This document shows positions 3,216-49,359 of a stretch of 64,000 nucleotides of DNA, one piece after another. The notes under the pieces were generated by a model that worked only from the letters and a program-made list of their open reading frames with translations, was not told the DNA's origin and ran no database searches. How positions within the stretch are numbered: the stretch's first letter is position 1; the number at the start of each line of letters is the position of its first letter. The translations under genes and the position numbers were made by a program. Source of the stretch: a virus (lineage: Duplodnaviria; Caudoviricetes); the IMG/VR virus record IMGVR_UViG_3300046678_000278, positions 1-64,000 of that record, one strand, 5' to 3'.

Positions 3216-3733
3216 TAGTTACCTTCTTTAGAATTACTCGTCACTTGATTTGCATAATCTTGGTTGCTATCTCTTGCTCCAATAATTTTGCCTAATGAAT
3301 CGTCGTCAATATCACCTTCTTCGTCATTTTGTAGTTTGGCTGAATGTAGGAAAAAGTTTAATATTTCTTCAACTAAGTATTTGATAAGGTCTTTTGCCGT
3401 TTTATCACTTTGGCCTTCGCTGATTAAATCCTTAAACATACCCTTAACATCTAGCAAATATGCTGTGCCGAATGGTTCTGCGTTTTCTTTGTTTTGCGGA
3501 CGAAAGCTAATAATGTCTTTTCCACGGGTGTAAATTCTAATACCACCGAACTCTAAACTCTCTATGATTGGATTGGCACTCACTGGTTTTTCAATGTAAA
3601 TATATGGGTCTTCGTGATGATTAAGTCGGTCTTTGACACCAAAACCTGCTTTTTCTAGAATCTTACCCAATAGACGTAAGTTGTCCTTATTCATCCTATC
3701 CTTACGTTCCAAAAATGCTGAGAACCTTTTCAT
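3215..3733 (-). CDS. Hypothetical protein with capsid-targeting-like N-terminus
   Basis: Likely start MKRFSAFLE at 3733; the longer track ORF overlaps the opposite-strand gene and its promoter. Confidence 0.6.
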   Translation of the reverse strand: MKRFSAFLERKDRMNKDNLRLLGKILEKAGFGVKDRLNHHEDPYIYIEKPVSANPIIESLEFGGIRIYTRGKDIISFRPQNKENAEPFGTAYLLDVKGMFKDLISEGQSDKTAKDLIKYLVEEILNFFLHSAKLQNDEEGDIDDDSLGKIIGARDSNQDYANQVTSNSKEGN

Positions 3734-3743
3734 GTAATATGTA

Positions 3744-3771
3744 TTGACAATATGGTAGAATTTATTATAAT
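3744..3771 (+). promoter_or_regulatory. Sigma70-type promoter
   Basis: TTGACA-N16-TATAAT, followed by GGAGG SD and ATG at 3789. Confidence 0.75.
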
Positions 3772-3788
3772 AAGATTGGAGGTAATAT

Positions 3789-4046
3789 ATGACTGTATTC
3801 TTTTTGGGCTTGTTGTGGTTTTTTATGATTTCAATGCAAACCAGAATCATAGCCTTTACTAATAATTTTATGTTTCATGGTCTTTGGACATTTATGGTAA
3901 GCATTGTTTGGGTATTTTTAATTAAGCAAATAATTGTTAGCACAGATAGCTGGGATTTTATTTTATATGCTCTTGGTACTGCTGTTGGTAGTATATTTGC
4001 TACTTATATTCATTCAAAGTTTATGACTAAAAAAGAAAAAGATTAA
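3789..4046 (+). CDS. Small multi-pass membrane protein
   Basis: 85 aa with about three hydrophobic helices; strong SD and promoter. Confidence 0.65.
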   Translation: MTVFFLGLLWFFMISMQTRIIAFTNNFMFHGLWTFMVSIVWVFLIKQIIVSTDSWDFILYALGTAVGSIFATYIHSKFMTKKEKD

Positions 4047-4510
4047 AAATTTTCGTATTGTTTTATATCATTCATGAACGCATCCCAGTATTTACCAAAT
4101 TCTGCAAGTTGTCTTCCATAGGTTTGTTCGCCATTAACTATTGCTTTAATGTTTCTCATCATAAACTTGTGAAATTGTCCAAGATGCTCAGCAGACTTCA
4201 AATCAGCACCACGATTTATTGTAGCTGGTTCTAGCATTCCACCGTTTTTTCTAAAATCAAGAATAGCATTAACTAGAGCATCTTTAGAAGCTTTGAGATT
4301 TTCCATAGGGACTTGAATCTCATATTTTTCAATGTAATATTGAAGTTTATTTATCTTATCTAACCAACCACTCATCATTTCAATAGGGTTAATTTTGTGA
4401 GAATAATAACCACGTTTATAAGAACCTACCGCTATTTGCCAAGCCCAGCGTCTAAGCTCACCCAAACTTATAGGGTGGCCCTCTTTCCAGTCGTCTCTTG
4501 ATTTTGTCAT
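4043..4510 (-). CDS. Hypothetical protein
   Basis: 155-aa ORF with TATAAATA 5 nt upstream of the ATG. Confidence 0.6.
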   Translation of the reverse strand: MTKSRDDWKEGHPISLGELRRWAWQIAVGSYKRGYYSHKINPIEMMSGWLDKINKLQYYIEKYEIQVPMENLKASKDALVNAILDFRKNGGMLEPATINRGADLKSAEHLGQFHKFMMRNIKAIVNGEQTYGRQLAEFGKYWDAFMNDIKQYENF

Positions 4511-6227: not shown

Positions 6228-6344
6228 GTTGTATTTAGCCAAATTAAAAGATATTGTATATATAAAAATAGAATCACACTTCTTACTTTTCTTATTTCCC
6301 CCTAAATACATTGTCAAACACCAAATGGAATGGGAGTAATATAG

Positions 6345-6818
6345 ATGTCCGAGATAGAAAAAACCCTCATTGAAGAAATTAAACAAATTATCAACATAAC
6401 TAGCAGGGTGGATGAGAGAGTTAAGATGATTGCTGATAGTCAGAATCAGATAGGTCAAAGACTAGAGCATTTTATTGATGAGCATAATGAATTAGCTTCA
6501 AAAGTTTATGTTATAGAAGCTAAAAATGGTTCTAAAGCATATGAGCTTATCAGTAAACTTGATGATAGATTGGATATTTTGGCATCTAAATTGGAAATAA
6601 TTGAGCTTATAGGGTCTAAGAAGCACACAGAAGAGATTGCAGATCATGAAGATACAATAATAGACATATTACATCGTACTAAAAATTTAGAAGAGCATAA
6701 AAGCAATATATCAGATAAAATTAAAACTGTTTTCAATCATGTAGTGCAGGGTGTATTTTTTATAGCTATTGCTTATATTCTTTACAAGTTGGGAATAAAT
6801 CCACCCCCAGGTCAATGA
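6345..6818 (+). CDS. Coiled-coil protein with C-terminal transmembrane helix
   Basis: Heptad pattern followed by VVQGVFFIAIAYILYKLGI; GGGAG SD. Confidence 0.55.
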   Translation: MSEIEKTLIEEIKQIINITSRVDERVKMIADSQNQIGQRLEHFIDEHNELASKVYVIEAKNGSKAYELISKLDDRLDILASKLEIIELIGSKKHTEEIADHEDTIIDILHRTKNLEEHKSNISDKIKTVFNHVVQGVFFIAIAYILYKLGINPPPGQ

Positions 6819-6841
6819 AACATTACTAATATAAGGACACT

Positions 6842-7381
6842 ATGGCAAGAGCAACTAATTATAATGGGCAACTGCAACCAATTAATTGCAGTATAACTAT
6901 TAATGGAACAACAGTAAAGCCAAGAATTTTACCAGAAATATCAGATTCCAAGTCGGCTTCTTATAATGATGAATCTGTTATTGGTAGATCATTCCCAATT
7001 AAGACATTTTCTCATGGTGAAAATCGCTCAATTTCAATGAAGTGGAAGATTCTTATTGTTGACACAGAAACATTATTTGAAGCAGTGCAGCAATTAAAGG
7101 CATTTACAAGTTTAGTTTATCCGCAAGCTGGATTTGGAAATACACCTTATCAACCGCCAACTATTTGCACTATTGATTGTGGACAAATATTATCCGCTGG
7201 GTCTGGCGAGAATTTTGGTCCGCTTTGTGTTATATTGAAATCTTATAGCATCACCTATCCAACAGATGTAGCTTGGAATGAAGATTTTATGATTCCTTAT
7301 AAGTTTGATATTGATTTGTCTTGGGATGTTGTTTATGCGACAAGCGAACTTCCAAATTCAAACATGATTATTGGTTTTTAA
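6842..7381 (+). CDS. Baseplate/tail-tube initiator protein (gp48/gp54 or CIS-tube-like)
   Basis: PEISDSKSASY...IGRSFPI...Y-P...PP pattern; first gene of the baseplate operon. Confidence 0.6.
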   Translation: MARATNYNGQLQPINCSITINGTTVKPRILPEISDSKSASYNDESVIGRSFPIKTFSHGENRSISMKWKILIVDTETLFEAVQQLKAFTSLVYPQAGFGNTPYQPPTICTIDCGQILSAGSGENFGPLCVILKSYSITYPTDVAWNEDFMIPYKFDIDLSWDVVYATSELPNSNMIIGF

Positions 7382-18866: not shown

Positions 18867-19370
18867 ATGATTGATTTTCAGAAGTCCCTAGGATTTATAA
18901 TACTAAATCCAGATAATAATCCTACCGCTTTACGCATTACAACCAATACTATAAAGGATAATTTTCCTCATGCCAAGGTTGTATCTGTCATTGGCGCTAA
19001 GGCAGATGATAGTAAGCAAATTAAAGGCGGAAACACAATAACATCTTTAATGGATGCGGGTATTAAGAACTCTAAAACGGAGTGGTGTCTTATTACTATG
19101 GCAGGTACTTACATAAGGCACTATCATTTAAAAAAATATGATCTTTTTCTTAAAGATGAAAAAGAGATATTGTATCCTGTTGTCAATAAAAAGTATGCTT
19201 TTGACGATGCAACTATAAATGGTATTTTGATTCACAAGAAAGCCATTGAAGAAGTTGGTAAGTTTGGTGACGATAATTGGAATATACAGCTTGTTAAAAT
19301 GCTGTGGGCTATTAAAGCCATTGAAAAGGGATATAGATTTAAAGCACTTGTTGGAGCTAGATTAGCATGA
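18867..19370 (+). CDS. Degenerate GT-A glycosyltransferase-like protein
   Basis: DAGIKNSKTEWCLI and ILIHKKAIEEVGKFGD...KGYRF resemble the GT2 core; DxD not evident. Confidence 0.45.
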   Translation: MIDFQKSLGFIILNPDNNPTALRITTNTIKDNFPHAKVVSVIGAKADDSKQIKGGNTITSLMDAGIKNSKTEWCLITMAGTYIRHYHLKKYDLFLKDEKEILYPVVNKKYAFDDATINGILIHKKAIEEVGKFGDDNWNIQLVKMLWAIKAIEKGYRFKALVGARLA

Positions 19371-19948
19371 TGGAAATTGAAGAATTATTGAAAAACTCAC
19401 AAATGGGAAGTCCCACATTCTTCCAATTAAATTATTTCGTAATTGGCAAAGAACCTACGCCACAATCTAAAATGCACAAATGCATTGAGGAAATTAGAGA
19501 TAGGTATAAGGCTATTAAAAATATAAAGTTTGAAATAGATGAACTTAAAGACCAAAATGAACTTCTATCTTTGTCTTTAATAGAGGTAAAGACCAGTAAA
19601 GATTATGAGATTAGAATTAGACAAGTAGATAGAAAAATAGATTCTAATATTGAACAAATTGAATTTCTCAAATCTAAAATTGATTCTTATGAAAAAGAAA
19701 TAAAGTTTTTGAAAGAATTGTTTGACCAGATTAATGAAAGAGTTCCATTAAAGCCTTGGGATGATTACAATGTTCAATTAGAGTATTGGAATGCTAAAAT
19801 GACTCAAGAGATTAATACTAGAGCTATTATGGGTCTTCCAGCAGATTTAGAAACGATTAAACTGATAGCCGCACTTCCAGACCAGATGCCAATTAAAAAG
19901 CAGTTATTAAGTCATATTGAAAAAAAGACGTTGCCAAAAGATAAATAG
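19367..19948 (+). CDS. Coiled-coil hypothetical protein
   Basis: 193 aa with a long heptad region. Confidence 0.55.
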   Translation: MMEIEELLKNSQMGSPTFFQLNYFVIGKEPTPQSKMHKCIEEIRDRYKAIKNIKFEIDELKDQNELLSLSLIEVKTSKDYEIRIRQVDRKIDSNIEQIEFLKSKIDSYEKEIKFLKELFDQINERVPLKPWDDYNVQLEYWNAKMTQEINTRAIMGLPADLETIKLIAALPDQMPIKKQLLSHIEKKTLPKDK

Positions 19949-34670: not shown

Positions 34671-35069
34671 ATGCAAGAAGATGATTTTCTTGAGTTTTCA
34701 TACAAGAAACCATTGAGGGATGAAACGATCTTCCCTCAATGGTATGAAAACACTTATAAAAAAACTCCCATAAGACGGATGGTAAATGATGTTATAGCTC
34801 CAAGGTTAGAATCCTTATCTGACTTGGATTTGTCGATAAGGACTACTAATATTTTAGAGAATGATGGCATTAAGACCGTAAAACAACTTATCGGCTATAC
34901 TATTGATGAGTTATTTGAAATTCGTAATTTTGGAGAGACTTCACTAAGGGAAATCAGAAAGAAGTTAGCAGATAATGGTTTGTTATTAGTGGGTGATAGT
35001 GTACCTGACGACAGATTCAGATTTGAAGACGAGCGATTTCTATCCGCCGAACGATTTGGATTGGACTAA
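34671..35069 (+). CDS. RNA polymerase alpha-CTD domain protein with YKKP-type N-terminal tag
   Basis: LSDLDLSIRTTNILENDGIKTVKQLI...IRNFGETSLREIRKKL...GL. Confidence 0.85.
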   Translation: MQEDDFLEFSYKKPLRDETIFPQWYENTYKKTPIRRMVNDVIAPRLESLSDLDLSIRTTNILENDGIKTVKQLIGYTIDELFEIRNFGETSLREIRKKLADNGLLLVGDSVPDDRFRFEDERFLSAERFGLD

Positions 35070-35075
35070 ATATTT

Positions 35076-35969
35076 ATGTATATTATGCAGCAATATGATG
35101 ATGCTCTAAAGTTTATTTTGGAAAATGGTGAACGAAGGTCAAATCGCACTGGCGTTGACTGCTTAACCATCTATTCAATGACACAAACATATAGGATAGA
35201 TGAATACTTCCCACTTCTTACCAAACGTAAACTTTATCCCAAAGCTATCTTTGCTGAACTTCTTTGGATGCTTTCTGGCTCTACCGACAATGAAGAACTA
35301 ATTAAACTTGGTGCTAATTTTTGGACACCTTGGGTAGATGAAACTCATCCAGAAAACAAAAAGTTTTACGAACGAACAAAATTTCGCAAAGGATTACTTG
35401 GTCCAGTATACGGTTTCCAAATGAGATACTTTGGTGCGCCATATTTCCCAGGAGTAGAAAGTAGAGGGTTTGGACAGACAGATGGTATTGATGTAGGTGT
35501 AGATCAAATAAAATGGCTGATAGAAGAGATAAAGATTAATCCAGACTCAAGAAGATTGATAGTATCTCTTTGGAATCCAGCCGATCTACATATCATGCGG
35601 CTACCACCTTGTCACTATTGCTTCCACGTTTTCATAGACGGCAAGGGTAGAATGTCCCTTTTGTTAAATCAGAGAAGTTGTGATTTTCCTGTTGGAGTTC
35701 CGGCCAATATTCAATTTTATTCTGCTTTGTGTTATATGATAGCACAACAAACTGGATATACACCTTATCAGTTTATTCATCATACAGAAGATTCACACAT
35801 TTACATGAATCAAATTGATAGTGTTAATGAGTATTTGGGCCGTGAAGCAAAGCCTTCGCCAAGAATGACGCTCAACAAAGCAAAGGATATATTTTCTTAT
35901 CAATTAAGCGACTTCAAGATAGAAGAATATGACCCGCATTCCCCAATAAAAGTTATGGTGACTGTATGA
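35076..35969 (+). CDS. thyA: Thymidylate synthase
   Basis: NRTG, ELLW, GPVYGFQ, SRR, LPPCH, QRSCDFPVGVPAN, HIY. Confidence 0.95.
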   Translation: MYIMQQYDDALKFILENGERRSNRTGVDCLTIYSMTQTYRIDEYFPLLTKRKLYPKAIFAELLWMLSGSTDNEELIKLGANFWTPWVDETHPENKKFYERTKFRKGLLGPVYGFQMRYFGAPYFPGVESRGFGQTDGIDVGVDQIKWLIEEIKINPDSRRLIVSLWNPADLHIMRLPPCHYCFHVFIDGKGRMSLLLNQRSCDFPVGVPANIQFYSALCYMIAQQTGYTPYQFIHHTEDSHIYMNQIDSVNEYLGREAKPSPRMTLNKAKDIFSYQLSDFKIEEYDPHSPIKVMVTV

Positions 35970-36133
35970 GGAAATTCTTTGAAACATTGATTCTTAGTGC
36001 AATTTTATTCATAATGGGATTTTTAGCGTATCCATTGGTGTTCGTTCCGCTTGGTGCTAAACTTTTTCCAGAGTTTATGGATGAATTGGTTGCACTTTAC
36101 AGGATATATCTAACACAACTATGGGGATTTTAA
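35966..36133 (+). CDS. Small membrane protein, 55 aa (not in the ORF track)
   Basis: MRKFFETLILSAILFIMGFLAYPLVF...; ATGA overlap with thyA. Confidence 0.5.
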   Translation: MRKFFETLILSAILFIMGFLAYPLVFVPLGAKLFPEFMDELVALYRIYLTQLWGF

Positions 36134-36135
36134 CC

Positions 36136-36405
36136 ATGATTGAATATGCTGATATTCTAGATAAAAGAGTGATTATTGTAATGACAGAAGAAGAAGGTAT
36201 TACACTCATTCCTGGTGTGGCTAAACTTGACAAAGACAACTATATGTTTGAAGTTTACCCAGATAGAGAAGTTATGGAAGAATGGGATGCTAATGAAGCC
36301 GTAGGTATTGGCTGTGAAACTTTTGAAAATGATGTTATTCGCAAACTGGATGATGACCACAATTTAAGAATTAAGTATAATGTTGACTATGCAATTATGT
36401 TATGA
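36136..36405 (+). CDS. Acidic hypothetical protein
   Basis: Part of a tightly packed operon. Confidence 0.5.
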   Translation: MIEYADILDKRVIIVMTEEEGITLIPGVAKLDKDNYMFEVYPDREVMEEWDANEAVGIGCETFENDVIRKLDDDHNLRIKYNVDYAIML

Positions 36406-36412
36406 GGATAAT

Positions 36413-36607
36413 ATGAAATACTCTATTGAGTTAAATTGTCTTGACAATGGCCGAAAGTTCCTTAATTATTGGGATGATGAAAATGGCGAAGACGTAATTT
36501 GTGAAATCATTAATGGACAAATAATGATAGAAGAAAAAGAAATGTCATTTAAAGAAATATCATTTATGGATTTCGTTCAGCTTGTTGAAAGGAAAACAAA
36601 TGAATAA
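36413..36607 (+). CDS. Hypothetical protein
   Basis: GAGG SD, start MKYSIEL. Confidence 0.5.
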   Translation: MKYSIELNCLDNGRKFLNYWDDENGEDVICEIINGQIMIEEKEMSFKEISFMDFVQLVERKTNE

Positions 36608-36812
36608 TTTGCAAGCAAGTGACTTGCCAACGCCTAATGACCTTCTAGGGATTGGGAACTTTTGGGACGGAGAAAAAGCCAAAGACCCAGACGGAAAGAC
36701 TTATTGGCGGTATATGATTTTTACTTATAAAGACAAAAGAACTTATGTTCTAGAGAATCATATTGAACCCGAAACTCGTAAAATTAATCAGATTGTAAAG
36801 CGTCTTTATTAG
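36600..36812 (+). CDS. Hypothetical protein
   Basis: AAGGA SD, start MNNLQ. Confidence 0.5.
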   Translation: MNNLQASDLPTPNDLLGIGNFWDGEKAKDPDGKTYWRYMIFTYKDKRTYVLENHIEPETRKINQIVKRLY

Positions 36813-36832
36813 TAATTTATAAAAGGAATAAT

Positions 36833-37111
36833 ATGCCATACATTAAACAAGAACAAAGAGAAGAGCTAGAACCTCTAATTAATGAGTTAGCTTCTAAGAT
36901 TCAATCCCTATCAGATAAAGATAAAACTGCTTTTGCTGGATTATTAAACTATGCTTGTACTTGTATAGCATTAAAAACCATTCCAGAGAAAAGATATTGG
37001 GCTATTGCAGCAACTACTGGCGCTTTGAGAAATGCTGCCGAAGAATTTTATAGAAGATATGGCGTTCCTTATGAAGATGAAATGATAAAAACTAACGGAG
37101 ATGTCTACTAA
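36833..37111 (+). CDS. Conserved phage protein (MPYIK...GxLNY...EFYRR...PYED...NGDVY type)
   Basis: Recognisable motif layout; function unknown. Confidence 0.65.
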   Translation: MPYIKQEQREELEPLINELASKIQSLSDKDKTAFAGLLNYACTCIALKTIPEKRYWAIAATTGALRNAAEEFYRRYGVPYEDEMIKTNGDVY

Positions 37112-37329
37112 TGGGATGGAAGAAATCACCTAATCATGGGATGCCTAAAACTTATAATTGGACTTTTATGAGTTATGGTTCAAATGAAACTCCCAAAAAA
37201 ATACCTTGGTATTTTATAAACTATCAAGATTGGGGATTTGGATTTTCTGTAGTTTTTAATCGTGCTTTTCGAGGCATTAAAATTCATTTTTTGTGTTTTG
37301 AATCAGTTTTAGGTTGGTATTACAAATGA
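37111..37329 (+). CDS. Hypothetical protein
   Basis: Coupled to neighbouring genes by overlaps. Confidence 0.45.
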   Translation: MGWKKSPNHGMPKTYNWTFMSYGSNETPKKIPWYFINYQDWGFGFSVVFNRAFRGIKIHFLCFESVLGWYYK

Positions 37330-37796
37330 TATACTTAATAGTTGCAACTGACCCTAATGGCGTTATAGGTAAAGACAACACTATACCTTGGCATTGTTCA
37401 GAAGACCTTAAACTCTTTAAGAAGAGAACAGTGGGCGGCTCTGTTATAATGGGCAGTAATACATGGAAGAGTTTACCTAAGAAGCCACTGCCAGACCGGA
37501 AAAATTATGTTTTAACACGTTCTCTGACGTGGTTTGATGATACAAGAGTTGTGTGGTGTAGTTCTTTGACTGATGCTGTCAAGCACGCTTCCGAAGAAAC
37601 AGAAAATGTTTTTATTATTGGTGGGGAGCAGATATACAAAGAAGCTCTCAATCAGAACGTAGTTGATCGCATAATCTTGAGCAAATTAAAAAAAGAATAT
37701 GATGGAAACCGCTATTTCAAAGTTCCTAAAGATTGGGTAGAATATCAGAGAGATAGTTACGAGGAGTTCGATGTCATTTACTTTGTGAAGGGCTAA
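37326..37796 (+). CDS. folA: Dihydrofolate reductase
   Basis: IVA...GVIG..NTIPW...DL..FK..T...VIMG..TW.SLP..PLPDR.N; IIGG. Confidence 0.95.
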   Translation: MIYLIVATDPNGVIGKDNTIPWHCSEDLKLFKKRTVGGSVIMGSNTWKSLPKKPLPDRKNYVLTRSLTWFDDTRVVWCSSLTDAVKHASEETENVFIIGGEQIYKEALNQNVVDRIILSKLKKEYDGNRYFKVPKDWVEYQRDSYEEFDVIYFVKG

Positions 37797-38042
37797 ATGA
37801 AACTCTTAAAGGACTTTTGGAAACATTGTTGGAATTTCTTCTTTCTGTATAAAGAAATACCTACTCAGTGTTGGAAATGCAAGAAACCAATGGTAATTAA
37901 ACTTAAATTACCTAATACTTATGATTTGAAAAATCATCGCTGCATTTCAGGTTCAATGGCTTGTAGGTGCGGCGAAATAACACAAGTATCTTATTACGTT
38001 AATATATCAGGACCAGCATTTGGTCGTAAAATGGGAGATTGA
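37797..38042 (+). CDS. Small Zn-ribbon-like protein
   Basis: CWKC...CRCG. Confidence 0.45.
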   Translation: MKLLKDFWKHCWNFFFLYKEIPTQCWKCKKPMVIKLKLPNTYDLKNHRCISGSMACRCGEITQVSYYVNISGPAFGRKMGD

Positions 38043-38043
38043 G

Positions 38044-38253
38044 ATGGATTTATTGAATAAAGTTTTGGATATGATGGCACATTGGTCGGCGTGTGGGCAA
38101 GGTATATTTTTATTGTTAATGGTTTTGATTGTATTGGGGTTTGCGTATAGTTTTTTCAAATTGATAATTGAGTTTATTCTAATATCCTTTAGAGGCTATC
38201 CAAATAAACCCCATAAGTGTCATCATGGTAAAGATCATGTCCAGAAAACATAG
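38044..38253 (+). CDS. Small membrane protein
   Basis: Hydrophobic helix; GGAG SD. Confidence 0.5.
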   Translation: MDLLNKVLDMMAHWSACGQGIFLLLMVLIVLGFAYSFFKLIIEFILISFRGYPNKPHKCHHGKDHVQKT

Positions 38254-38635
38254 TGATGTTATTGACAGGCTAACTGATCGTGTTAAAAGTTATTACAACA
38301 CGATTAATCGCCGTCAAATGTTTAGTATTTACTCTATAGTTGACATGGAGTTATTTAGGGAGTTTGGTGGAGTATGTAAATGGCTAGAGGGAAATTCACC
38401 AATATTAAATTCGTTTTCTAATGCTTATGGCCAAATTGAAGTTGTTAATGTTGTTATGGATGTTCATTTTGATGAACACAGCATCAAATACGGCAGAAGA
38501 GATTATGCTATAGGCAAAAGTGAATGCAACACAACAGTTGGCAAAAGAACATTTAAAGAAGAATGGGTATTAAGTAATAGGGGTCTTTGGGTTAATTGCA
38601 ATATTGTTCCAAAGGAGCTTAACAGTGAACAATGA
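38237..38635 (+). CDS. Hypothetical protein
   Basis: ORF within the operon. Confidence 0.5.
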   Translation: MSRKHSDVIDRLTDRVKSYYNTINRRQMFSIYSIVDMELFREFGGVCKWLEGNSPILNSFSNAYGQIEVVNVVMDVHFDEHSIKYGRRDYAIGKSECNTTVGKRTFKEEWVLSNRGLWVNCNIVPKELNSEQ

Positions 38636-39170
38636 AGAAGCGGCTAAAGCAAATAGTCTTGAAAGTATTCCAGCCGAAGAAATTAAAGTTGAGCCTAAGT
38701 CTTCTGGAACAAAATCCAAAATTGGCGATGACGCATTCGTATCTGAATTTGTAAAGCTAATAAAATCTGGTCCAGTATGGCGCAGTTCTGGTAAACTTGC
38801 AGAAATACTACAAGTTGACGTTGTAAACTTAGCAGCATGGATGGATAAGCAACCAGAAATAGCAAGGCGTCCAGGCAAAGAAGACGGCGTAGTTTATTAT
38901 GCTGCTTTGAGAAGATTAGAAGAGGAAAAAGAAAAGATTCCTCCTGGTATGGAGAGAAAGCAAATAATAGAAGAAGATAGATATGCTTTTGCACTTCTTC
39001 ATCAAAGTTATAATAATCTGACAACAACTCTTGAAAAATATGCTCTTGGTATTCATACTAGAAACAAAGAAAGTTTTGCTAAATTGGTTGAAGCCAGAGA
39101 TGCAATGAGTGCAGGGATAGTGTTATTTGCAAATGCTTTAAAGTTAGATATTTCAAAACTCCCAAAGTGA
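38625..39170 (+). CDS. Hypothetical protein, possible winged-helix plus helical domain
   Basis: GTG start after AAGGAG; WRSSGKLAEILQVD segment. Confidence 0.5.
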   Translation: MNNEEAAKANSLESIPAEEIKVEPKSSGTKSKIGDDAFVSEFVKLIKSGPVWRSSGKLAEILQVDVVNLAAWMDKQPEIARRPGKEDGVVYYAALRRLEEEKEKIPPGMERKQIIEEDRYAFALLHQSYNNLTTTLEKYALGIHTRNKESFAKLVEARDAMSAGIVLFANALKLDISKLPK

Positions 39171-39177
39171 GAAAGTC

Positions 39178-39360
39178 ATGACTACTAAACAGTTGATAGC
39201 TAGAATTGGTTTCACCTCAATGGTATTTGTTATCTTGGGAACTCTAGTTTTTGGAATGATTTCCAGTATAGGGTGGTTTGGCGCATTGGTTGTTTTTAGT
39301 ATGATTTTCTGCATTTTACTTGTAGTAGCTGCCTTTATGTGGTGTGCAAACAATATGTGA
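39178..39360 (+). CDS. Small two-TM membrane protein
   Basis: Two hydrophobic helices. Confidence 0.5.
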   Translation: MTTKQLIARIGFTSMVFVILGTLVFGMISSIGWFGALVVFSMIFCILLVVAAFMWCANNM

Positions 39361-39453
39361 TTTATATGAATAACACTAAATGGTTTATAATTGCTATTAT
39401 TTTATTGTTGCTACAAATTATACAAATTTTTTATTGGTTCATAAGGTGTACAA

Positions 39454-39639
39454 ATGCTTAGTAAAATAGATAAAAAATTCGCTACGGTTGTTGATGTTAC
39501 AGCTGGATATAGTTCAACTGGACTTTATTTAGATATTTTTGTGCCTACCAAATCTAGAGAAGATCACGGGAACCTCAAGGAAGCTATCAAGAAACTTATC
39601 GAAGCAGCAGGATATGAAGTCTATAGAGGCGCTAAATAA
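39454..39639 (+). CDS. Hypothetical protein
   Basis: AAGGTG SD. Confidence 0.5.
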   Translation: MLSKIDKKFATVVDVTAGYSSTGLYLDIFVPTKSREDHGNLKEAIKKLIEAAGYEVYRGAK

Positions 39640-39713
39640 TTTTGAACAAAAAGGGTTTACATCTCTCAAAAATGAAAATAAGGGACTAAATTAACTATGA
39701 GGAGAGATAAAAA

Positions 39714-40022
39714 ATGCCTACCTATAGTTTTTTCTGCAAAAAATGTGATCTTGAATTTTCTGAGATGTGCATGTATAGTGATAAAAAGAAAGTTGGTTGC
39801 CCTAAGTGTGGCAAGAAGAAGTTAAGTGAGCTTGTGACAGGACCAAGAGCTATCATATTCAAGGAAAAGAAGGGTACTAGTAGGGAAGATAATTTTGAGT
39901 ACGTTGCACAATGGAATGCAGAACAAAATCAAAACTTGAGAAGGGCCGCTGAAAATGCTAATAAACACGGCGATCCTTATAAGCATATAGATGATTCAAG
40001 ATACGAAGGAAAAATAGTTTAG
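39714..40022 (+). CDS. FmdB-family zinc-ribbon protein
   Basis: MPTYSFFCKKC...F...CPKCG. Confidence 0.85.
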   Translation: MPTYSFFCKKCDLEFSEMCMYSDKKKVGCPKCGKKKLSELVTGPRAIIFKEKKGTSREDNFEYVAQWNAEQNQNLRRAAENANKHGDPYKHIDDSRYEGKIV

Positions 40023-40024
40023 TC

Positions 40025-40052
40025 TTGACTTTTTAAATTTTTAGTGTAGATT
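40025..40052 (+). promoter_or_regulatory. Possible sigma70-type promoter for prkA
   Basis: TTGACT-N16-TAGATT, about 150 nt upstream of the ATG. Confidence 0.4.
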
Positions 40053-40201
40053 AGCTTTAGTAAATTAAGTCCCATCATAATAATAACTCGTCGATAATAA
40101 TTCTCAAATAATATTGTAAGAAGATAGTTTCTATTCATAGTGCTATAAGATATGTTTATAAGACACATCTGTACGCACACATCTTTTAGGGAGCGGGTTA
40201 T

Positions 40202-42313
40202 ATGACCGTTAAAACAAGCCGTCGTTTTGAAGAACTTTCCAAGCAGTTTGATCGTGAAAAGTATCAGAAACTCACCGAGAAGATGAGCTTTCCACAATAC
40301 TTGGATCGTGTATTTGATCGTCCAAGATTGGCCTATAGTGCCTATCAAAGACTTTATAGTATGATTATTTCTGCTGGAACCTATAATATTGAGCGATATC
40401 GCAAAACCGTTACGAAGTACAAGTTCTTCAACGACCCAGAGATTCCAATCTTTGGTCTAGAAGATACTTTAGGAAATCTAGTCAAACACGTCAAAGGTGC
40501 TGCAAGCTGGCACGGAACAGAGAAGCGTATTCTATTGCTTCACGGACCAGTAGGCTCGTCCAAGTCTACCATCTGCCGTCTTCTAAAGCGTGGTCTAGAA
40601 CGATATAGTCAAACAGATGATGGTGCAATTTACACCTACACCTGGACAAATCTTGGTGAAATCAAGAACGACCGTGGAGAAGTCTTGTTCCCAGCGCTTG
40701 ACATTAAGGATGAATGCAAGTGTCCAATGAACGATGATCCATTGAAGTTAATCCCAAGCTATATGCGTAAAGAGATTCAAGACCGTTTGAATCAAATCAA
40801 CGAAGAGGGTAGCACAACCCCAGAAATGAAAAGCACCATTTACCAGATTCGTTTAGGTGGTGAACTAAACCCACAATGCGACTTCTACATGACAGAGTTG
40901 CTAAAACGTTATAATGGCGACTGGGGTAAGGTTGTAGAAAACCATATCGAAGTTCGTAGAATCGTCTTGAGTGAATCCAAGCGTGTTGGTATCGGTACTT
41001 TCCAACCAAAAGACCCGAAGAATCAAGATGCAACAGAACTCACAGGTGATATCAACTACACCAAGTTGGCTCACTATGGCGTTGACTCCGATCCAAGAGC
41101 GTTTGGTTTCGACGGTGAATTTGAAGTAGCCAACCGTGGCTTCATCGAGTTCATTGAAGTTCTCAAATTGGAAAAAGAGTTCTTGTATGACTTGCTAGGC
41201 GTTTGCCAAGAACGTCAATTCAAACCAAAGAAATTTCCACAAATCGACGTTGATATGGTCATCGTCGGCCACACCAACAATCCTGAGTTCGTCAAGTTAC
41301 AGCAAGACGTAACAATGGAAGCTCTTCGTGATAGAACAGTTCGTGTTGACGTTCCTTACTTGCTACGTTGGACTGACGAGCTTAAAGTTTTGGAACAAGA
41401 TTACGGCAAGGAAAGAGTTAAGAACATCCACATTGCTCCGCATACCTTGGAAATCGCTGCATTGTGGGCAATTTTGACACGCCTCAAGGACGGCAAGGAC
41501 AACGTAAGTCTTGTCGATAAGGCAAAACTTTATGACGGTCGAAGTATGCCAGGATGGACAGAAGATCGTGTAAAGGAATTGCGTGACAAGTATGCTGATG
41601 AAGGCATGTCCCGTGGTGTATCCGCCCGTTACGTCCAGAACAAGATTGCAAACGCACTTGTAAGCAATCCTGGTTACGTCAACATGTTCATGGTCCTCAA
41701 CGAAATCAAGGAAGGCTTAGGCACATTCGCCCTAATCGTTGATGAAAATGATCGTCAACACTACGACAACTGCATAGAGTTGGTTAAGAAGGAACTAGAC
41801 GATATCTTGAAAAAGGAAGTTCAACGAGCCTTGGTTGCTGATGAGAACGCAATCACCCGTTTGTACACCAACTACATCGACAACGTTGTAGCGCACGTTG
41901 AAAAGACAAAGATTACCGACCCATTCACAGGCGCTGAGATGGAACCAGATGAACGCTTGATGAGAGCAATCGAAGAGAAAGCCGATATCGGCGATCAATA
42001 CGCAGACGATTTCCGTCGCCAGATTGCAACTTACATTGGTACTCAACACATGAAGGGCAAGGAAGTTCGTTGGGACAGCAATCCTAAGTTGGCAAAGGCT
42101 TTGGAAAAGAAGCTCTTTGAAGACACCAAGGACACAATCAAGTTGTCTGCTCTAAGCAAGGGCGCAACTGTAGGTGACAAAGACCTTCAAGAGAAGATCG
42201 ACGCCGTTAAGACACGAATGATTCGCAACTACGGCTACAACGAAAACAGTGCTACAGACGTACTAAACTACGTTGCAAGTATCTTCGCCCGTGGCGAAAC
42301 CTCTGATAACTAA
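40202..42313 (+). CDS. prkA: PrkA/YeaG-family AAA+ protein
   Basis: LLHGPVGSSKS Walker A, GIGTFQP.DPKNQD.TELTG, DPRAF.FDGEF..ANRG..EF.E..K, EALRDR, G.SARY, YGYN..SA.DVL. Confidence 0.95.
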   Translation: MTVKTSRRFEELSKQFDREKYQKLTEKMSFPQYLDRVFDRPRLAYSAYQRLYSMIISAGTYNIERYRKTVTKYKFFNDPEIPIFGLEDTLGNLVKHVKGAASWHGTEKRILLLHGPVGSSKSTICRLLKRGLERYSQTDDGAIYTYTWTNLGEIKNDRGEVLFPALDIKDECKCPMNDDPLKLIPSYMRKEIQDRLNQINEEGSTTPEMKSTIYQIRLGGELNPQCDFYMTELLKRYNGDWGKVVENHIEVRRIVLSESKRVGIGTFQPKDPKNQDATELTGDINYTKLAHYGVDSDPRAFGFDGEFEVANRGFIEFIEVLKLEKEFLYDLLGVCQERQFKPKKFPQIDVDMVIVGHTNNPEFVKLQQDVTMEALRDRTVRVDVPYLLRWTDELKVLEQDYGKERVKNIHIAPHTLEIAALWAILTRLKDGKDNVSLVDKAKLYDGRSMPGWTEDRVKELRDKYADEGMSRGVSARYVQNKIANALVSNPGYVNMFMVLNEIKEGLGTFALIVDENDRQHYDNCIELVKKELDDILKKEVQRALVADENAITRLYTNYIDNVVAHVEKTKITDPFTGAEMEPDERLMRAIEEKADIGDQYADDFRRQIATYIGTQHMKGKEVRWDSNPKLAKALEKKLFEDTKDTIKLSALSKGATVGDKDLQEKIDAVKTRMIRNYGYNENSATDVLNYVASIFARGETSDN

Positions 42314-42340
42314 GAATAATATTTCATATTAATAATACAA

Positions 42341-42363
42341 GAAGGGGGGATTTTCCCCCCTTC
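42341..42363 (+). terminator. GC-rich hairpin after prkA
   Basis: gaagggggga-ttt-tccccccttc. Confidence 0.7.
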
Positions 42364-42380
42364 TATTTACGGGAGATTTT

Positions 42381-42632
42381 ATGGAGATGGAATGCTTAGA
42401 ACTGACTTATAAAAAGCCTCAACAACCAAGATCATTAAATGGTTATTACTATGGTTATGATAATTGGGATTGGGAAGTCACTAAAACAAATCTAGGAACA
42501 TTCAGAGAAGAACCCAAGCCACCTAAAGTTGCTTGGTCTAGGGAAATGGCTAGAGAGTTTGGAGTAGAATATTATGGAAGTAGTAACCTTGACGTACAAA
42601 AAGCCAAATTGCAAAAAGACAGTAACGCTTGA
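42381..42632 (+). CDS. YKKP-tag small protein 1
   Basis: MEMECLELTYKKP; GGGAG SD. Confidence 0.6.
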   Translation: MEMECLELTYKKPQQPRSLNGYYYGYDNWDWEVTKTNLGTFREEPKPPKVAWSREMAREFGVEYYGSSNLDVQKAKLQKDSNA

Positions 42633-42735
42633 TGGATATGCAAGAATTAGAATACCACTAATAAGAAGATTGCAACCACAGAGCATGATTCAAGTGCCAT
42701 TGGTAGCAAAGCCGTTTCCTCACCTTATAGCATAG
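42574..42735 (+). CDS. YKKP-tag small protein 2, 53 aa (not in the ORF track)
   Basis: GGAG SD at 42561; MEVVTLTYKKPNCKKTVTLDGYARIRIPLIRRLQPQSMIQVPLVAKPFPHLIA*. Confidence 0.65.
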   Translation: MEVVTLTYKKPNCKKTVTLDGYARIRIPLIRRLQPQSMIQVPLVAKPFPHLIA

Positions 42736-42745
42736 GAAAATTAAT

Positions 42746-42973
42746 ATGGAACTTCTAGACTTTGATTACCGAAAACCGACTAGGTTTCAAAGATATGTAG
42801 CCCGCAATTTAGAGCTTGTTAAAAGACAAGAAGAAGAAAAGTTGGCAAAGTTTAATGAGCGAACACGGTCAGTAATAGAACAGATGAAGAAATTATATGG
42901 ATATAGTACGGAATCAGCACATGATGTATTAAGTCATGTTCATAAATCATACAAAGAAAACATACAGGGGTAA
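42746..42973 (+). CDS. YKKP-tag small protein 3 carrying a PrkA C-terminus-like segment
   Basis: MELLDFDYRKP...MKKLYGYSTESAHDVLSHV; AGGA SD. Confidence 0.7.
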   Translation: MELLDFDYRKPTRFQRYVARNLELVKRQEEEKLAKFNERTRSVIEQMKKLYGYSTESAHDVLSHVHKSYKENIQG

Positions 42974-42976
42974 AAT

Positions 42977-44212
42977 ATGCCACACAATATAAAAGAAGAT
43001 CACAAAGAGTTCAGAGATGTAGTAGGCGGAAAGGTTAGAGACGAACTCAAGAAGTTTATAAGAACAGGCAAGATATTCAGACAGCGTGGTAAAAATGGTA
43101 AAGTTGGTGTTACTATTCCACGTATTGATTTACCTCATATTGTTTTCGGCAAGCCAAATGAAGGTGTAGGTCGTGGTCCTGGTGGTCCTGGTGATATTAT
43201 CGGTAAAGACCCAGATAAAGGCAAAGACGGAACAGGTGCAGATGGCGATCATGCAGAAGGTATTGTTGTTCAAGTAGACCTAGAATACATTCTCAAACTA
43301 TTGAAGGATGAGCTAGAACTTCCTGACCTTCTACCAAAAGCAAGTCAAACTTTTGAAGACGAGAAAACTGTCTATAACGGTATTTCTAAAGTTGGTCCAA
43401 ATGCACTTCTACACAAACGAAGAACGTTAAGAGAAACTATGAAGCGTGTTTCTGCTGCTGGCGGACTTGATAAAACCGCAGTGGTTCCTGGTTTCAATCA
43501 GCCAGTAAGATTGCTTCTTCCAAATAACGATGATAGACGATATCGCCAGTATAATATTGTTAAGCGACCAATTAGCAATGCTGTAATATTCTACATGCGT
43601 GATGGTTCTGGTTCTATGGACCCATTTAAGTGTGATATTGTCAGTGATGTTTGCTGGTGGTTAGACTTGTGGATTCGTACATTTTATAAAAAGACGGAAT
43701 CATGTTATATTTGGCACGATACCGAAGCTAAGGAAGTATCGCAAGAGAATTTCTATAACTTGAGATTCGGTGGTGGTACACGTTGTTCATCGTCCTTGAG
43801 GTTAATGAAAAAGTTAATTCAGCCAAAGAGCAAGTATGATCCTTCCAAGTGGAATATTTATGCTTTCTATTTTGGTGATGGTGAAAACGAACAGAACGAC
43901 AATCCAAATTTCAGTAAGTTATTAAAGAATGATCTTGGACCAAAGAAGGTTAACTTGTTTGGTTTAACACAGGTTCTAGCGCATGGCTATGATGGAACAT
44001 TGAAGCACCATGTTGATAAGCAGCTTGAAGGTGGAAAATTGTCTGCTGAACACACCAGAACTACTGCAATCGACCGTCCAGAAGGCGCAAGTTGGGATTA
44101 TTATCAAGACCCAGCAAATCGTGATGAAGCTGTTAAGAAGGCATTGAAAGATTTGCTTGGAAAGAATGTCAAGGCTGGTCGTAGCACGGTTAAGATCGAG
44201 GAAATAGCATGA
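42977..44212 (+). CDS. yeaH: YeaH/YhbH (DUF444) vWA-domain protein
   Basis: IPRIDLP..VFG, DDRRYR, AVIFYMRDGSGSM (MIDAS), GGT..SS, WNIY.F...DGEN. Confidence 0.9.
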   Translation: MPHNIKEDHKEFRDVVGGKVRDELKKFIRTGKIFRQRGKNGKVGVTIPRIDLPHIVFGKPNEGVGRGPGGPGDIIGKDPDKGKDGTGADGDHAEGIVVQVDLEYILKLLKDELELPDLLPKASQTFEDEKTVYNGISKVGPNALLHKRRTLRETMKRVSAAGGLDKTAVVPGFNQPVRLLLPNNDDRRYRQYNIVKRPISNAVIFYMRDGSGSMDPFKCDIVSDVCWWLDLWIRTFYKKTESCYIWHDTEAKEVSQENFYNLRFGGGTRCSSSLRLMKKLIQPKSKYDPSKWNIYAFYFGDGENEQNDNPNFSKLLKNDLGPKKVNLFGLTQVLAHGYDGTLKHHVDKQLEGGKLSAEHTRTTAIDRPEGASWDYYQDPANRDEAVKKALKDLLGKNVKAGRSTVKIEEIA

Positions 44213-44574
44213 ACTCTAACGATGTATTCAAACTCCTAAAGACTGGCGTTAAGTTTAAACGTCATATGGAGTGTGTTGAAGCTGGTTATGGTTGCAAGCT
44301 AGGCCAAAACTATACCCAAGAAGGTGTTGTTTATAAACCCGCCAGATGGGTTAAAAGGCAATATGACAATCCGCCAAGATACAAAGAGTTAATTGCGGAA
44401 GTGCCTTATGTTGACAGGGATGGAGTAACTAAAAAGGGTTATCTTTGTATTAGGTCTAGTCATCTTGATAAAAGTGATATTGAACCATTAGAGAATGGGT
44501 TTAAAGTTGTTGGAAAACCAGACCCAAACTTTAATATGGGAGTTTGGAACGAAACTTACATATTAGAAGAATAA
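44209..44574 (+). CDS. Hypothetical protein between yeaH and spoVR
   Basis: 121 aa; ATGA overlap with yeaH. Confidence 0.55.
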   Translation: MNSNDVFKLLKTGVKFKRHMECVEAGYGCKLGQNYTQEGVVYKPARWVKRQYDNPPRYKELIAEVPYVDRDGVTKKGYLCIRSSHLDKSDIEPLENGFKVVGKPDPNFNMGVWNETYILEE

Positions 44575-47949: not shown

Positions 47950-49359
47950 ATGCCATTAACAATAAGCGGATACGAACACCTTCATCGTCATAGCGATTTT
48001 TCACTTCTTGATGGTTACGCAAAAGTATGGGAATATGCAGAAAGGTCAAGACATATTGACCAACACTATCTTTGCATAACAGATCACGGAATGATGGCAT
48101 CAGTGCCAAGTCAAATTAGATGCTGTGAAGACATTACAAGAGGCGATATTAAAGAAGAACGCCCTGGACATACACTCAAACCTTTATACGGTGTAGAGCT
48201 ATATGTTCAAGACAAACATTGTAATGAAGATTCTCGTAAAGACCTTTCTCCAGATGAAGCAAAAGAACATCGCAAGTCTTATCACTTATTGGCAATAGCT
48301 CACAATTTAACTGGATATACTAATCTTGTCCAATTAACCAGTTGGGGATGGATAAATGGATTCTACTACAAGCCAAGAGTTACCCACGAACAACTAATGA
48401 AACACAAAGAAGGGGTTACATTCTCTTCTTGTTGTTATATGGGAGAAATTGGGCAAGCATTTGATCGTTACGGACCAGATGCAGCAGAAGCCATGTTAGA
48501 GAAGTATATGGCAATGTTTGGAGAGCATTTCTTTCTAGAATTGATGCTTTTGGACTTTAGTAAGCAGAAGCCATATGATGAATGGCTCATTAAGGCACAC
48601 GATAAATACCATATTCCTTTGATTGTTACTAACGACTGCCATTACTGCAATCAAGAAGATAGCAAGTATCAACGCTATATGTTGATGATCCAAAAGGGTA
48701 CTACCATTGCACAAATAGAGAATAAACTTTTAAAGGGTGATGATGACCAAGACATCTTTGAATTACAAGATAGTAACCTATGGATGAAGTCCGAAAAGGA
48801 AATGAATGACAAGTGGCTTTCGATGTATTCAGATGTTATTCCACTAGAGTTATTTGAACAAGCTAAAGCAAATACAATTAAGATATGCGAAAAAGCAAGC
48901 AACGTTGAAATTAATAGAGAAGCCAAGCTGCCACAACTACCAAATGAAAAAGAGAAGTTTTTAGAGCAAATAGAAGCTGGTTTGAAGTGGCGAGGTTTGT
49001 ATACTAAGAAGAAATATCGTGATAGATTAGTGGAAGAAGCAAGTTTGATTCTAAGGAAGGGATTCGCAAGTTACTTCTTAATCCAAAAGATGTTTACAGA
49101 TGAAGCCAGAAGGGTTTGTCCTAAATATCTAGGATGGGGAACAGGACATGAGGCTGTTGGTCCTGGTCGTGGTTCCGGTGTTGGTTCTCTTTGTAATTAC
49201 GTCTTAGGTATTACAGACGTTGATCCTATTAAACATGGTCTTCTATTTTCAAGATTTTTAAGTGAATCCCGTGGTGGAAAGATTATCAGAACAAGATTTT
49301 CAAAAGCACCACTTCCTCTAGACGTTGAGATTTTTGATGAAAAAGATAATACACATTAA
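47950..49359 (+). CDS. dnaE: DNA polymerase III alpha subunit, N-terminal half (PHP domain and start of palm)
   Basis: HLHRHSDFSLLDG, TDHG, GFYYKPR, TNDCHY, GPGRGS.VGSL..YVLGITDVDP...LLF.RFL; ends before PDIDxD. Confidence 0.9.
   Translation: MPLTISGYEHLHRHSDFSLLDGYAKVWEYAERSRHIDQHYLCITDHGMMASVPSQIRCCEDITRGDIKEERPGHTLKPLYGVELYVQDKHCNEDSRKDLSPDEAKEHRKSYHLLAIAHNLTGYTNLVQLTSWGWINGFYYKPRVTHEQLMKHKEGVTFSSCCYMGEIGQAFDRYGPDAAEAMLEKYMAMFGEHFFLELMLLDFSKQKPYDEWLIKAHDKYHIPLIVTNDCHYCNQEDSKYQRYMLMIQKGTTIAQIENKLLKGDDDQDIFELQDSNLWMKSEKEMNDKWLSMYSDVIPLELFEQAKANTIKICEKASNVEINREAKLPQLPNEKEKFLEQIEAGLKWRGLYTKKKYRDRLVEEASLILRKGFASYFLIQKMFTDEARRVCPKYLGWGTGHEAVGPGRGSGVGSLCNYVLGITDVDPIKHGLLFSRFLSESRGGKIIRTRFSKAPLPLDVEIFDEKDNTH

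Follow-up and report, generated by a model that had tools for sequence, protein, structure and literature searches.

Four small open reading frames (ORFs) of a giant, T4-like freshwater phage begin with one and the same short peptide and then continue as unrelated, partly borrowed proteins. They lie in what we call the window, positions 1-64,000 of the 105,736-bp IMG/VR contig IMGVR_UViG_3300046678_000278 (36% G+C; about 21% of a genome by the CheckV completeness estimate). Three of them stand between prkA and yeaH, and the fourth some kilobases upstream. This architecture, one N-terminal tag on bodies of diverse origin, had been proposed in an original prediction made from the letters alone; it stands, and it now extends to 14 members in five related phage contigs (the window and the contigs L265, L199, L201 and L252), with at least seven types of body behind the tag. 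The reading that we favour, tentatively and at a little less than an even chance, is that the tag is a common handle and the body a mimic. Several rivals have to be weighed against it, among them a signal for packaging into the capsid.

Four ORFs opening with the same peptide

All four ORFs were recovered on the + strand where they had been predicted, with the expected peptides. ORF 34671 (34671-35069, 132 aa) carries the tag at aa 1-14 (34671-34712) and, at aa 48-100 (34812-34970), the C-terminal domain of the RNA polymerase alpha subunit (alpha-CTD). The other three form the predicted tandem array between prkA and yeaH. ORF 42381 (42381-42632, 83 aa; tag 42381-42419) has a body without recognisable relative. 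ORF 42574 (42574-42735, 53 aa; tag 42574-42606), which the gene track had missed, overlaps its predecessor by 59 nt in a different frame and has an orthologue in L265. ORF 42746 (42746-42973, 75 aa; tag 42746-42778) has two helices after the tag and stops 3 nt short of yeaH. Together these ORFs occupy nearly the whole prkA-yeaH gap of the window. Each of the four has its own Shine-Dalgarno-like sequence (GAGG, GGGAG, GGAG and AGGA), as had been claimed for the three of the array, while their upstream regions are mutually dissimilar. ORFs 42381 and 42574 are similar to each other over about 22 residues. In terms of codon usage, ORF 42381 is typical of a gene; ORFs 42574 and 42746 score low (5th percentile), and the non-overlapping part of ORF 42574 scores under all true gene windows. 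A degenerate second tag core (T-Y-K-K-T-P) is visible in the linker of ORF 34671 (aa 26-36, 34746-34778); the L265 orthologue does not have it.

Conservation of the tag

The tag is 11-14 residues long, with an alternation of residues that resembles a beta strand. The consensus of the 14 tags is M-E-h-h-[EDT]-[FLI]-[TNSD]-Y-[KRQ]-[KRA]-P, where h is hydrophobic. Y and P are the same in all of them, and the spacing between start codon and motif differs by up to 3 residues among members. In the six-frame translation of the contig, Y-[KR]-K-P occurs eight times, and the four occurrences in open frames are precisely the four tagged N-termini; looser patterns, run on the whole contig, added no member. 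A regular expression for the tag gave four matches, against a mean of 0.025 and a maximum of 1 in 200 dinucleotide-preserving shuffles. Because the pattern was derived from the same data, this test overstates the significance, and the margin is large nonetheless.

Comparison of codon positions tells at which level the tag is conserved. Across the eight tag codons of the four ORFs of the window, 29% of the pairwise comparisons show a difference at positions 1 and 2 (12% within Y-[KR]-K-P) and 67% show one at position 3, for which 73% would be random. In the eight codons that flank the tag on each side, every codon position is at the random level. With all 14 members the values are very similar, 26% for positions 1 and 2 and 66% for position 3. 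The first two positions are thus held while the third is saturated, so that the tag is conserved as protein, in agreement with the synonymous codon variation pointed out at the start: it makes an eight-residue island of conservation within otherwise unrelated sequence.

For ORF 42746, an AlphaFold2 model based on a three-sequence alignment (pLDDT 79.7) has helices at residues 13-51 and 55-74, with the tag (residues 1-12) non-helical and of low confidence (pLDDT about 51) ahead of a confident helical hairpin. In this model the free end fits what is expected of a short linear motif, of which it is no proof. The model of ORF 34671, made without alignment, is unusable (pLDDT 44.7).

The tag belongs to no described family that Pfam and PHROGs would cover. 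Searched at E <=0.1, the tag itself and the bodies of ORFs 42381, 42574 and 42746 returned chance-level matches only, apart from the PrkA tail discussed below, and the unassigned bodies are likewise uncovered; the prediction, too, had recognised no described family. Some look-alikes were considered. The tag may bear a likeness to the terminal hydrophobic peptides that bind the pocket of sliding clamps (Q-L-x-L-x-L or L-D-F-L-F; beta clamp, T4 gp45); the 105.7-kb contig lacks a clamp gene. Derivation from the N-terminus of RpoA is a weak lead, suggested by the aromatic-x-K-P at residues 8-11 of the Escherichia coli protein: two Planctomycetota RpoA miss the tag pattern, and the spacing differs. 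UvsW-like SF2 helicases with an I-x-F-D-Y-K-K-P start (L066:2557-3990, L158:4431-5831) belong to unrelated viral contigs; there the tag-like start is probably the first strand of an N-terminal domain, and a chance look-alike.

Borrowed and orphan bodies

The prediction had assigned the four bodies to an alpha-CTD, to a copy of the PrkA C-terminus and to two possible capsid-like fragments. Three of these assignments hold, those of ORFs 34671, 42746 and 42574, and the capsid likeness of ORF 42381 has to be dropped.

The alpha-CTD of ORF 34671, a helix-hairpin-helix domain which in bacterial RNA polymerase binds DNA and activators, is confirmed by Pfam: PF03118 matches at E 2.6e-17 over positions 14-66 of its 67 and scores 62.8 bits, where the cut-off is 23.8. 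The orthologue at L265:1187-1483 retains both the tag and the domain (60.1 bits). The alpha N-terminal domain is absent, so ORF 34671 encodes a free-standing CTD rather than an RpoA. A homologue search returned just distant bacterial alpha-CTD proteins without the tag. The nearest cellular relatives, at 42-53% identity, are RpoA of Phycisphaerales and proteins that combine TPR with tandem CTDs (L266-L271). This kinship with Phycisphaerales (Planctomycetota) may hint at the donor or the host, even though the phage has only 36% G+C.

In ORF 42746, the stretch of aa 31-72 (42836-42961) is a copy of the C-terminal end of PrkA. Compared with this tail by hhalign, the protein gave E 1.6e-5 alone, 2.2e-7 as part of a pair and 1.4e-9 in the trio that it forms with its orthologue in L265 and the member of L199; against a full-length PrkA profile, the trio matched positions 659-698 (42176-42295). 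The L265 orthologue reaches positions 224-255 of the 255 of PF06798 (E 0.0026, 17.9 bits against a cut-off of 25). ORF 42746 does not match the whole domain of 255 positions, and corresponds to its last 32-41 positions or so: it is a copy of a tail, not a PrkA. The last 40 or so residues encoded by prkA are the source or the model of the body. Since synonymous sites are saturated in comparison with the window's own prkA, the copy must be old or imported. A search of 1.84 billion representative proteins returned no relative of ORF 42746.

The body of ORF 42574 is still shorter. Its aa 22-36 (42637-42681) copy an invariant block of gp23-type major capsid proteins, and the block recurs in degenerate form at aa 39-53 (42688-42732). 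When compared with the capsid protein of the closest large relative (tblastn, Smith-Waterman), its score was reached by one of 3000 shuffles; against 60 capsid proteins (hhalign), it obtained E 2.5e-5 alone and E 1.3e-6 over 25 columns together with its orthologue. PF07068, the model of the capsid fold, gave no Pfam hit with ORF 42574 or with ORF 42381, and what matches in ORF 42574 is a block of 15-25 residues. The copied block aligns with residues 20-88 of mature T4 gp23. The Gol region, residues 93-122 of the gp23 precursor, would cover the copied block. In T4, this region binds EF-Tu and triggers the Lit defence of E. coli.

ORF 42381 is another matter. Its supposed likeness to capsid protein comes to E 0.62-0.86 by hhalign, and Smith-Waterman comparison also gave no similarity; no relative was found in the ESM Atlas, in the Protein Data Bank (PDB) or in five related records. 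The ESM Atlas model has a pLDDT of 0.30, and the body is probably disordered. Three further body types, E, F and G (in L201 and L252), had no match to PrkA, YeaH, SpoVR or capsid protein, nor in Pfam or PHROG searches. By profile comparison, the E type is distantly related to the D type, the PrkA-tail body of ORF 42746, and may be a truncated form of it.

Relatives of the tagged genes

The absence of further members from relatives had been named as something that would refute the prediction; ten more were found, in four related contigs. A scan for PrkA among metagenome contigs was used to reach closer relatives. In L201, whose PrkA is 91% identical, prkA is followed directly by two tagged ORFs, and in L252 (PrkA 88%) by three, with bodies unlike those of the window. 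In L199 (PrkA 87%; L199:1014-2089), a tagged mimic of the PrkA tail comes directly after a gene resembling DNA methyltransferases and lies upstream of prkA at a distance of 1.9 kb, while the prkA-yeaH gap is short; the tagged genes thus move as cassettes. A nine-member profile then retrieved P0129, an orthologue of ORF 42381 (L265:9995-10228), whose contig is L265. This contig shares synteny and about 88% nucleotide identity with the window (PrkA 98% identical) and has orthologues of all four tagged ORFs; that of ORF 42574 (L265:10194) retains the tag, the capsid block and the overlap with the orthologue of ORF 42381. L265 also has genes for a GrpE-like protein, a class II tRNA-synthetase-like protein and a LAGLIDADG endonuclease (3707-4189, 6282-7049 and 19223-19801) that are absent or different at the matching places of the window; accessory genes therefore turn over fast despite the 88% identity. 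In all, 11 of the 14 members stand directly after prkA.

The 47 IMG/VR loci with PrkA and five whole related records contain no tagged ORF. A degenerate DNA pattern of the tag, run across IMG/VR, gave at least 118 hits; among the matches listed, none came two per contig, and those in frame looked like chance.

Fast evolution under purifying selection

Between the window and L265, the flanking genes prkA, yeaH, thyA and that of the C26 amidotransferase encode proteins 94-98% identical; their dN/dS is 0.03-0.05 and their dS 0.34-0.68. Between the tagged genes of the two contigs the divergence is much larger. The alpha-CTD gene 34671 has 61% protein identity (dN/dS 0.18), ORF 42381 71% (0.58), ORF 42574 64% (0.35) and ORF 42746 38%, with dN/dS not computable in the latter case as its synonymous sites are saturated. 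Their dN is 0.21-0.66, against 0.01-0.04 for the flanks, which amounts to a protein change 10-60 times faster; all dN/dS values that can be computed are below 1. The tagged genes are thus real, and under purifying selection yet fast-evolving. The existence of L265 orthologues also settles the coding status of ORFs 42574 and 42746, which was doubtful from codon usage. Finally, ORF 42746 and the alpha-CTD gene exceed the flanks in synonymous divergence, which suggests exchange of alleles or cassettes.

Genomic setting

The lineage is T4-like. A baseplate-wedge gene is present on the contig, and in the record of L002, the closest large relative, the gene of a gp21-type prohead protease (PF03420, E 8e-26) neighbours that of a gp23-type capsid protein (E 6.5e-88). 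Seven further metagenome contigs from this phage, compared as a check of population polymorphism, are 99.97-100% identical, too alike for a pN/pS ratio. In the window, the gene order on the + strand is C26 amidotransferase, ORF 34671, thyA, DHFR, prkA, the three-ORF array, yeaH, a 121-aa ORF and spoVR. The prkA gene (40202..42313, +) encodes 703 aa with a AAA+ domain and the PrkA C-terminal domain (Pfam PF08298 and PF06798); its product has a homologue with solved structures (PDB 9xip, E 2.5e-199). A G+C-rich hairpin with an 11-bp stem (42340..42364) closely follows the prkA stop and leaves 17 nt to the start of ORF 42381; it is retained upstream of L265:9995 in the syntenic relative. Scans for sigma-70-type and T4 late promoters showed no excess over chance near the array. 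Downstream, the border is made by yeaH (DUF444, vWA-like; 42977..44212, +; Pfam PF04285, E 9.3e-66). Farther on, at 47950-49359, the window encodes part of a DnaE, about 460-470 aa with the PHP domain and the start of the polymerase domain, which is a separate gene in the syntenic relative as well (L265:15260-16648).

The slot occupied by the array (42314-42976 in the window) is itself of interest. Among 45 related loci (L001-L047), the prkA-yeaH junction measures 16 to 1112 nt: it is a hot spot of gene gain. Between yeaH and spoVR the length is likewise variable (8 to 976 nt), with unrelated inserts; the insert of the window is the 121-aa orphan ORF (44209-44574). In at least 17 more distant relatives, the prkA-yeaH slot holds a family of ORFs of about 71 aa with an invariant N-terminal M-x-N-x-W-L (alignment A1; L047:12138-12353, L026:12137-12542, L044:12155-12570, L019:12158-12511). 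In L026, L044 and L019, a second ORF of the slot has just this peptide in common with the first. The family has no Pfam match, and comparison detected no homology to the tagged ORFs. Like the tagged family, it combines the same slot, the same size and an invariant N-terminal peptide; unlike it, it has one dominant body type and no recognisable mimic. A possible further member stands far from the slot, in a 381-kb record (L194). That one N-terminus with different bodies recurs in this slot with another peptide is the best hint, an indirect one, that such peptides relate to the PrkA-YeaH machine.

Possible roles of the tag

How could one handle serve so many bodies? In the reading that we favour, the N-terminal peptide would be a short linear motif that links every body to one partner, and the exchangeable body would bind the usual binder of the copied segment, or compete for it, as a mimic or a bait. 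Our best guess for the partner, a doubtful one, is the PrkA-YeaH-SpoVR machine, made of AAA+ and vWA proteins and involved in protein turnover. PrkA has been reported to be an ATP-dependent protease (PMC9512850), and YeaG to be necessary for bulk proteolysis upon starvation (PMC13684143). The idea of docking comes from the position of the genes, the non-helical tag of the model and the parallel case of the M-x-N-x-W-L ORFs. Taken to its end, which we consider unlikely, the scenario makes the mini-proteins programmable adaptors or decoys of the phage machine: the tag would dock, and the body would recruit or shield the partner of the segment that it copies. Mini-proteins of about 50-130 aa might then act as adaptors, pseudo-substrates or regulators of the machine. 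Candidate partners would be EF-Tu or a sensor of the capsid for the Gol-like block, those of RNA polymerase for the alpha-CTD and those of PrkA for its tail. The whole would be a natural toolkit for targeted degradation or decoying, evolving by swaps of bait.

Several observations weigh against this scenario. Four body types (that of ORF 42381, E, F and G) match nothing, so that mimicry cannot describe the whole family. The two alpha-CTD members lie about 5 kb from prkA. In L001 and L002, the closest IMG/VR relatives by PrkA (79-84%), the PrkA-YeaH-SpoVR trio is present with no tagged gene, and the module can therefore do without them. The family is restricted, as far as known, to one narrow phage lineage. 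Within the tag itself, the second basic residue is replaced by A in one member. Last, the residues hydrophobic-hydrophobic-E at positions 3-5, found in 9 of the 14 tags, would also suit a site for a T4-type prohead protease.

This last point introduces a rival that we deem improbable and yet serious, namely that the tag is a capsid-targeting propeptide: it would send the mini-proteins to the prohead, a gp21-type protease would cut after E5, and the mimics would be injected with the DNA, ready to act as soon as infection begins. It is serious because of these 9 tags and because the lineage, T4-like as it is, has a gp21-type protease, next to its gp23-type capsid protein in the closest large relative. 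T4 gp21 cleaves after L/I-x-E. The T4 internal proteins (IPI-III) and Alt, unrelated as they are, bear one peptide at their extreme N-terminus, a single label for many cargoes with a hydrophobic-x-E element near its end, and this counts for the propeptide. The likeness stops there. The sequence is different, the propeptide would have 5 residues against 10 in T4, and 5 of the 14 tags have D or T in place of E at the would-be P1. The best-conserved residues (Y, basic, basic, P) come after the putative cut. The bodies are tiny fragments and not enzymes or DNA-binding proteins; the genes are found beside prkA and among genes of nucleotide metabolism, not among head genes, and no TATAAATA occurs near them.

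An equally improbable alternative is a degron. The tag would keep the mimics short-lived, being recognised by an AAA+ protease of the host (ClpXP, ClpAP or Lon) directly, or by ClpS after a cut exposing F, L or I. One of these three residues does follow the conserved acidic position in 14 of 14 tags, the peptide is at the extreme N-terminus, hydrophobic then basic and outside the fold in the model, and decoys restricted to a time window are plausible clients. The known rules for N-terminal degrons are loose at the level of sequence. By contrast, the fixation of Y, a basic residue and P over at least seven body types exceeds the selection usual for known degrons, and there is no sign of a processing protease.

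More improbable still is the view of the tag as a relic of history, according to which one ancestral gene was duplicated and its bodies replaced, the N-terminus being retained as part of a start module, which would serve efficient initiation or act in cis as a regulatory nascent peptide, and not for the binding of a partner. The members are tandem neighbours in a hot spot of gene gain, two of them (ORFs 42381 and 42574) are similar over about 22 residues, and the D and E bodies are distantly related, all of which a relic would explain. It would not explain why the synonymous sites of the tag are saturated while its amino acids are held, from which it follows that the peptide itself is selected, and not the RNA; nor does it account for upstream regions and Shine-Dalgarno sequences that are dissimilar, or for a distance between motif and start that varies by up to 3 residues. 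Very improbable, finally, is the idea that illegitimate recombination, at a hot spot between genes, left these ORFs as non-coding remnants of capsid and prkA DNA, since the low codon scores of ORFs 42574 and 42746 and the lack of relatives of the latter, which would favour it, are set against four ORFs that fill almost the entire gap where they are arrayed, are open, tagged and conserved in L265, overlap included, with computable dN/dS below 1, and keep their conserved cores despite saturated synonymous sites.

Likeness to known systems and significance

A short N-terminal address on diverse cargo is already known, as are phage mini-proteins that copy fragments of the host. The new elements are the peptide itself, the association with prkA, and the presence of a Gol-like capsid block and of the PrkA tail among the copied bodies. 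Among T4 proteins, Srd and Srh are small, fast-evolving products derived from a piece of a host machine, presumed to be competitors or decoys, and the tagged alpha-CTD fits this pattern; they have no common tag, however, and form no known modular family with fragments of capsid protein or PrkA. Polymorphic effector families also join a conserved N-terminal module to exchangeable C-termini, in tandem arrays. Here, by contrast, the module is 11 conserved residues and not a domain, the proteins have 50-130 aa, and there are neither toxin domains nor immunity genes. As for the Gol region of T4 gp23 and the abortive-infection protease Lit (reviewed in PMC3014915), the aligned block is what ORF 42574 and its orthologue copy. 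There it is a free-standing stretch of 15-25 residues behind the tag, with a degenerate duplicate, outside any capsid protein.

The PrkA-YeaH-SpoVR module is widespread in phages and unstudied. Should the tag serve for docking or as an address, the family would be a compact natural case of one handle with many baits, the baits being copies of segments that host defences or machines recognise. It would also provide the first experimental entry into the phage module, as the mini-proteins could indicate its clients. Even if the tag should prove to be a packaging signal or a degron, these genes would tell how giant phages build small regulators, from a fixed start module and fragments of conserved genes, in a hypervariable slot.

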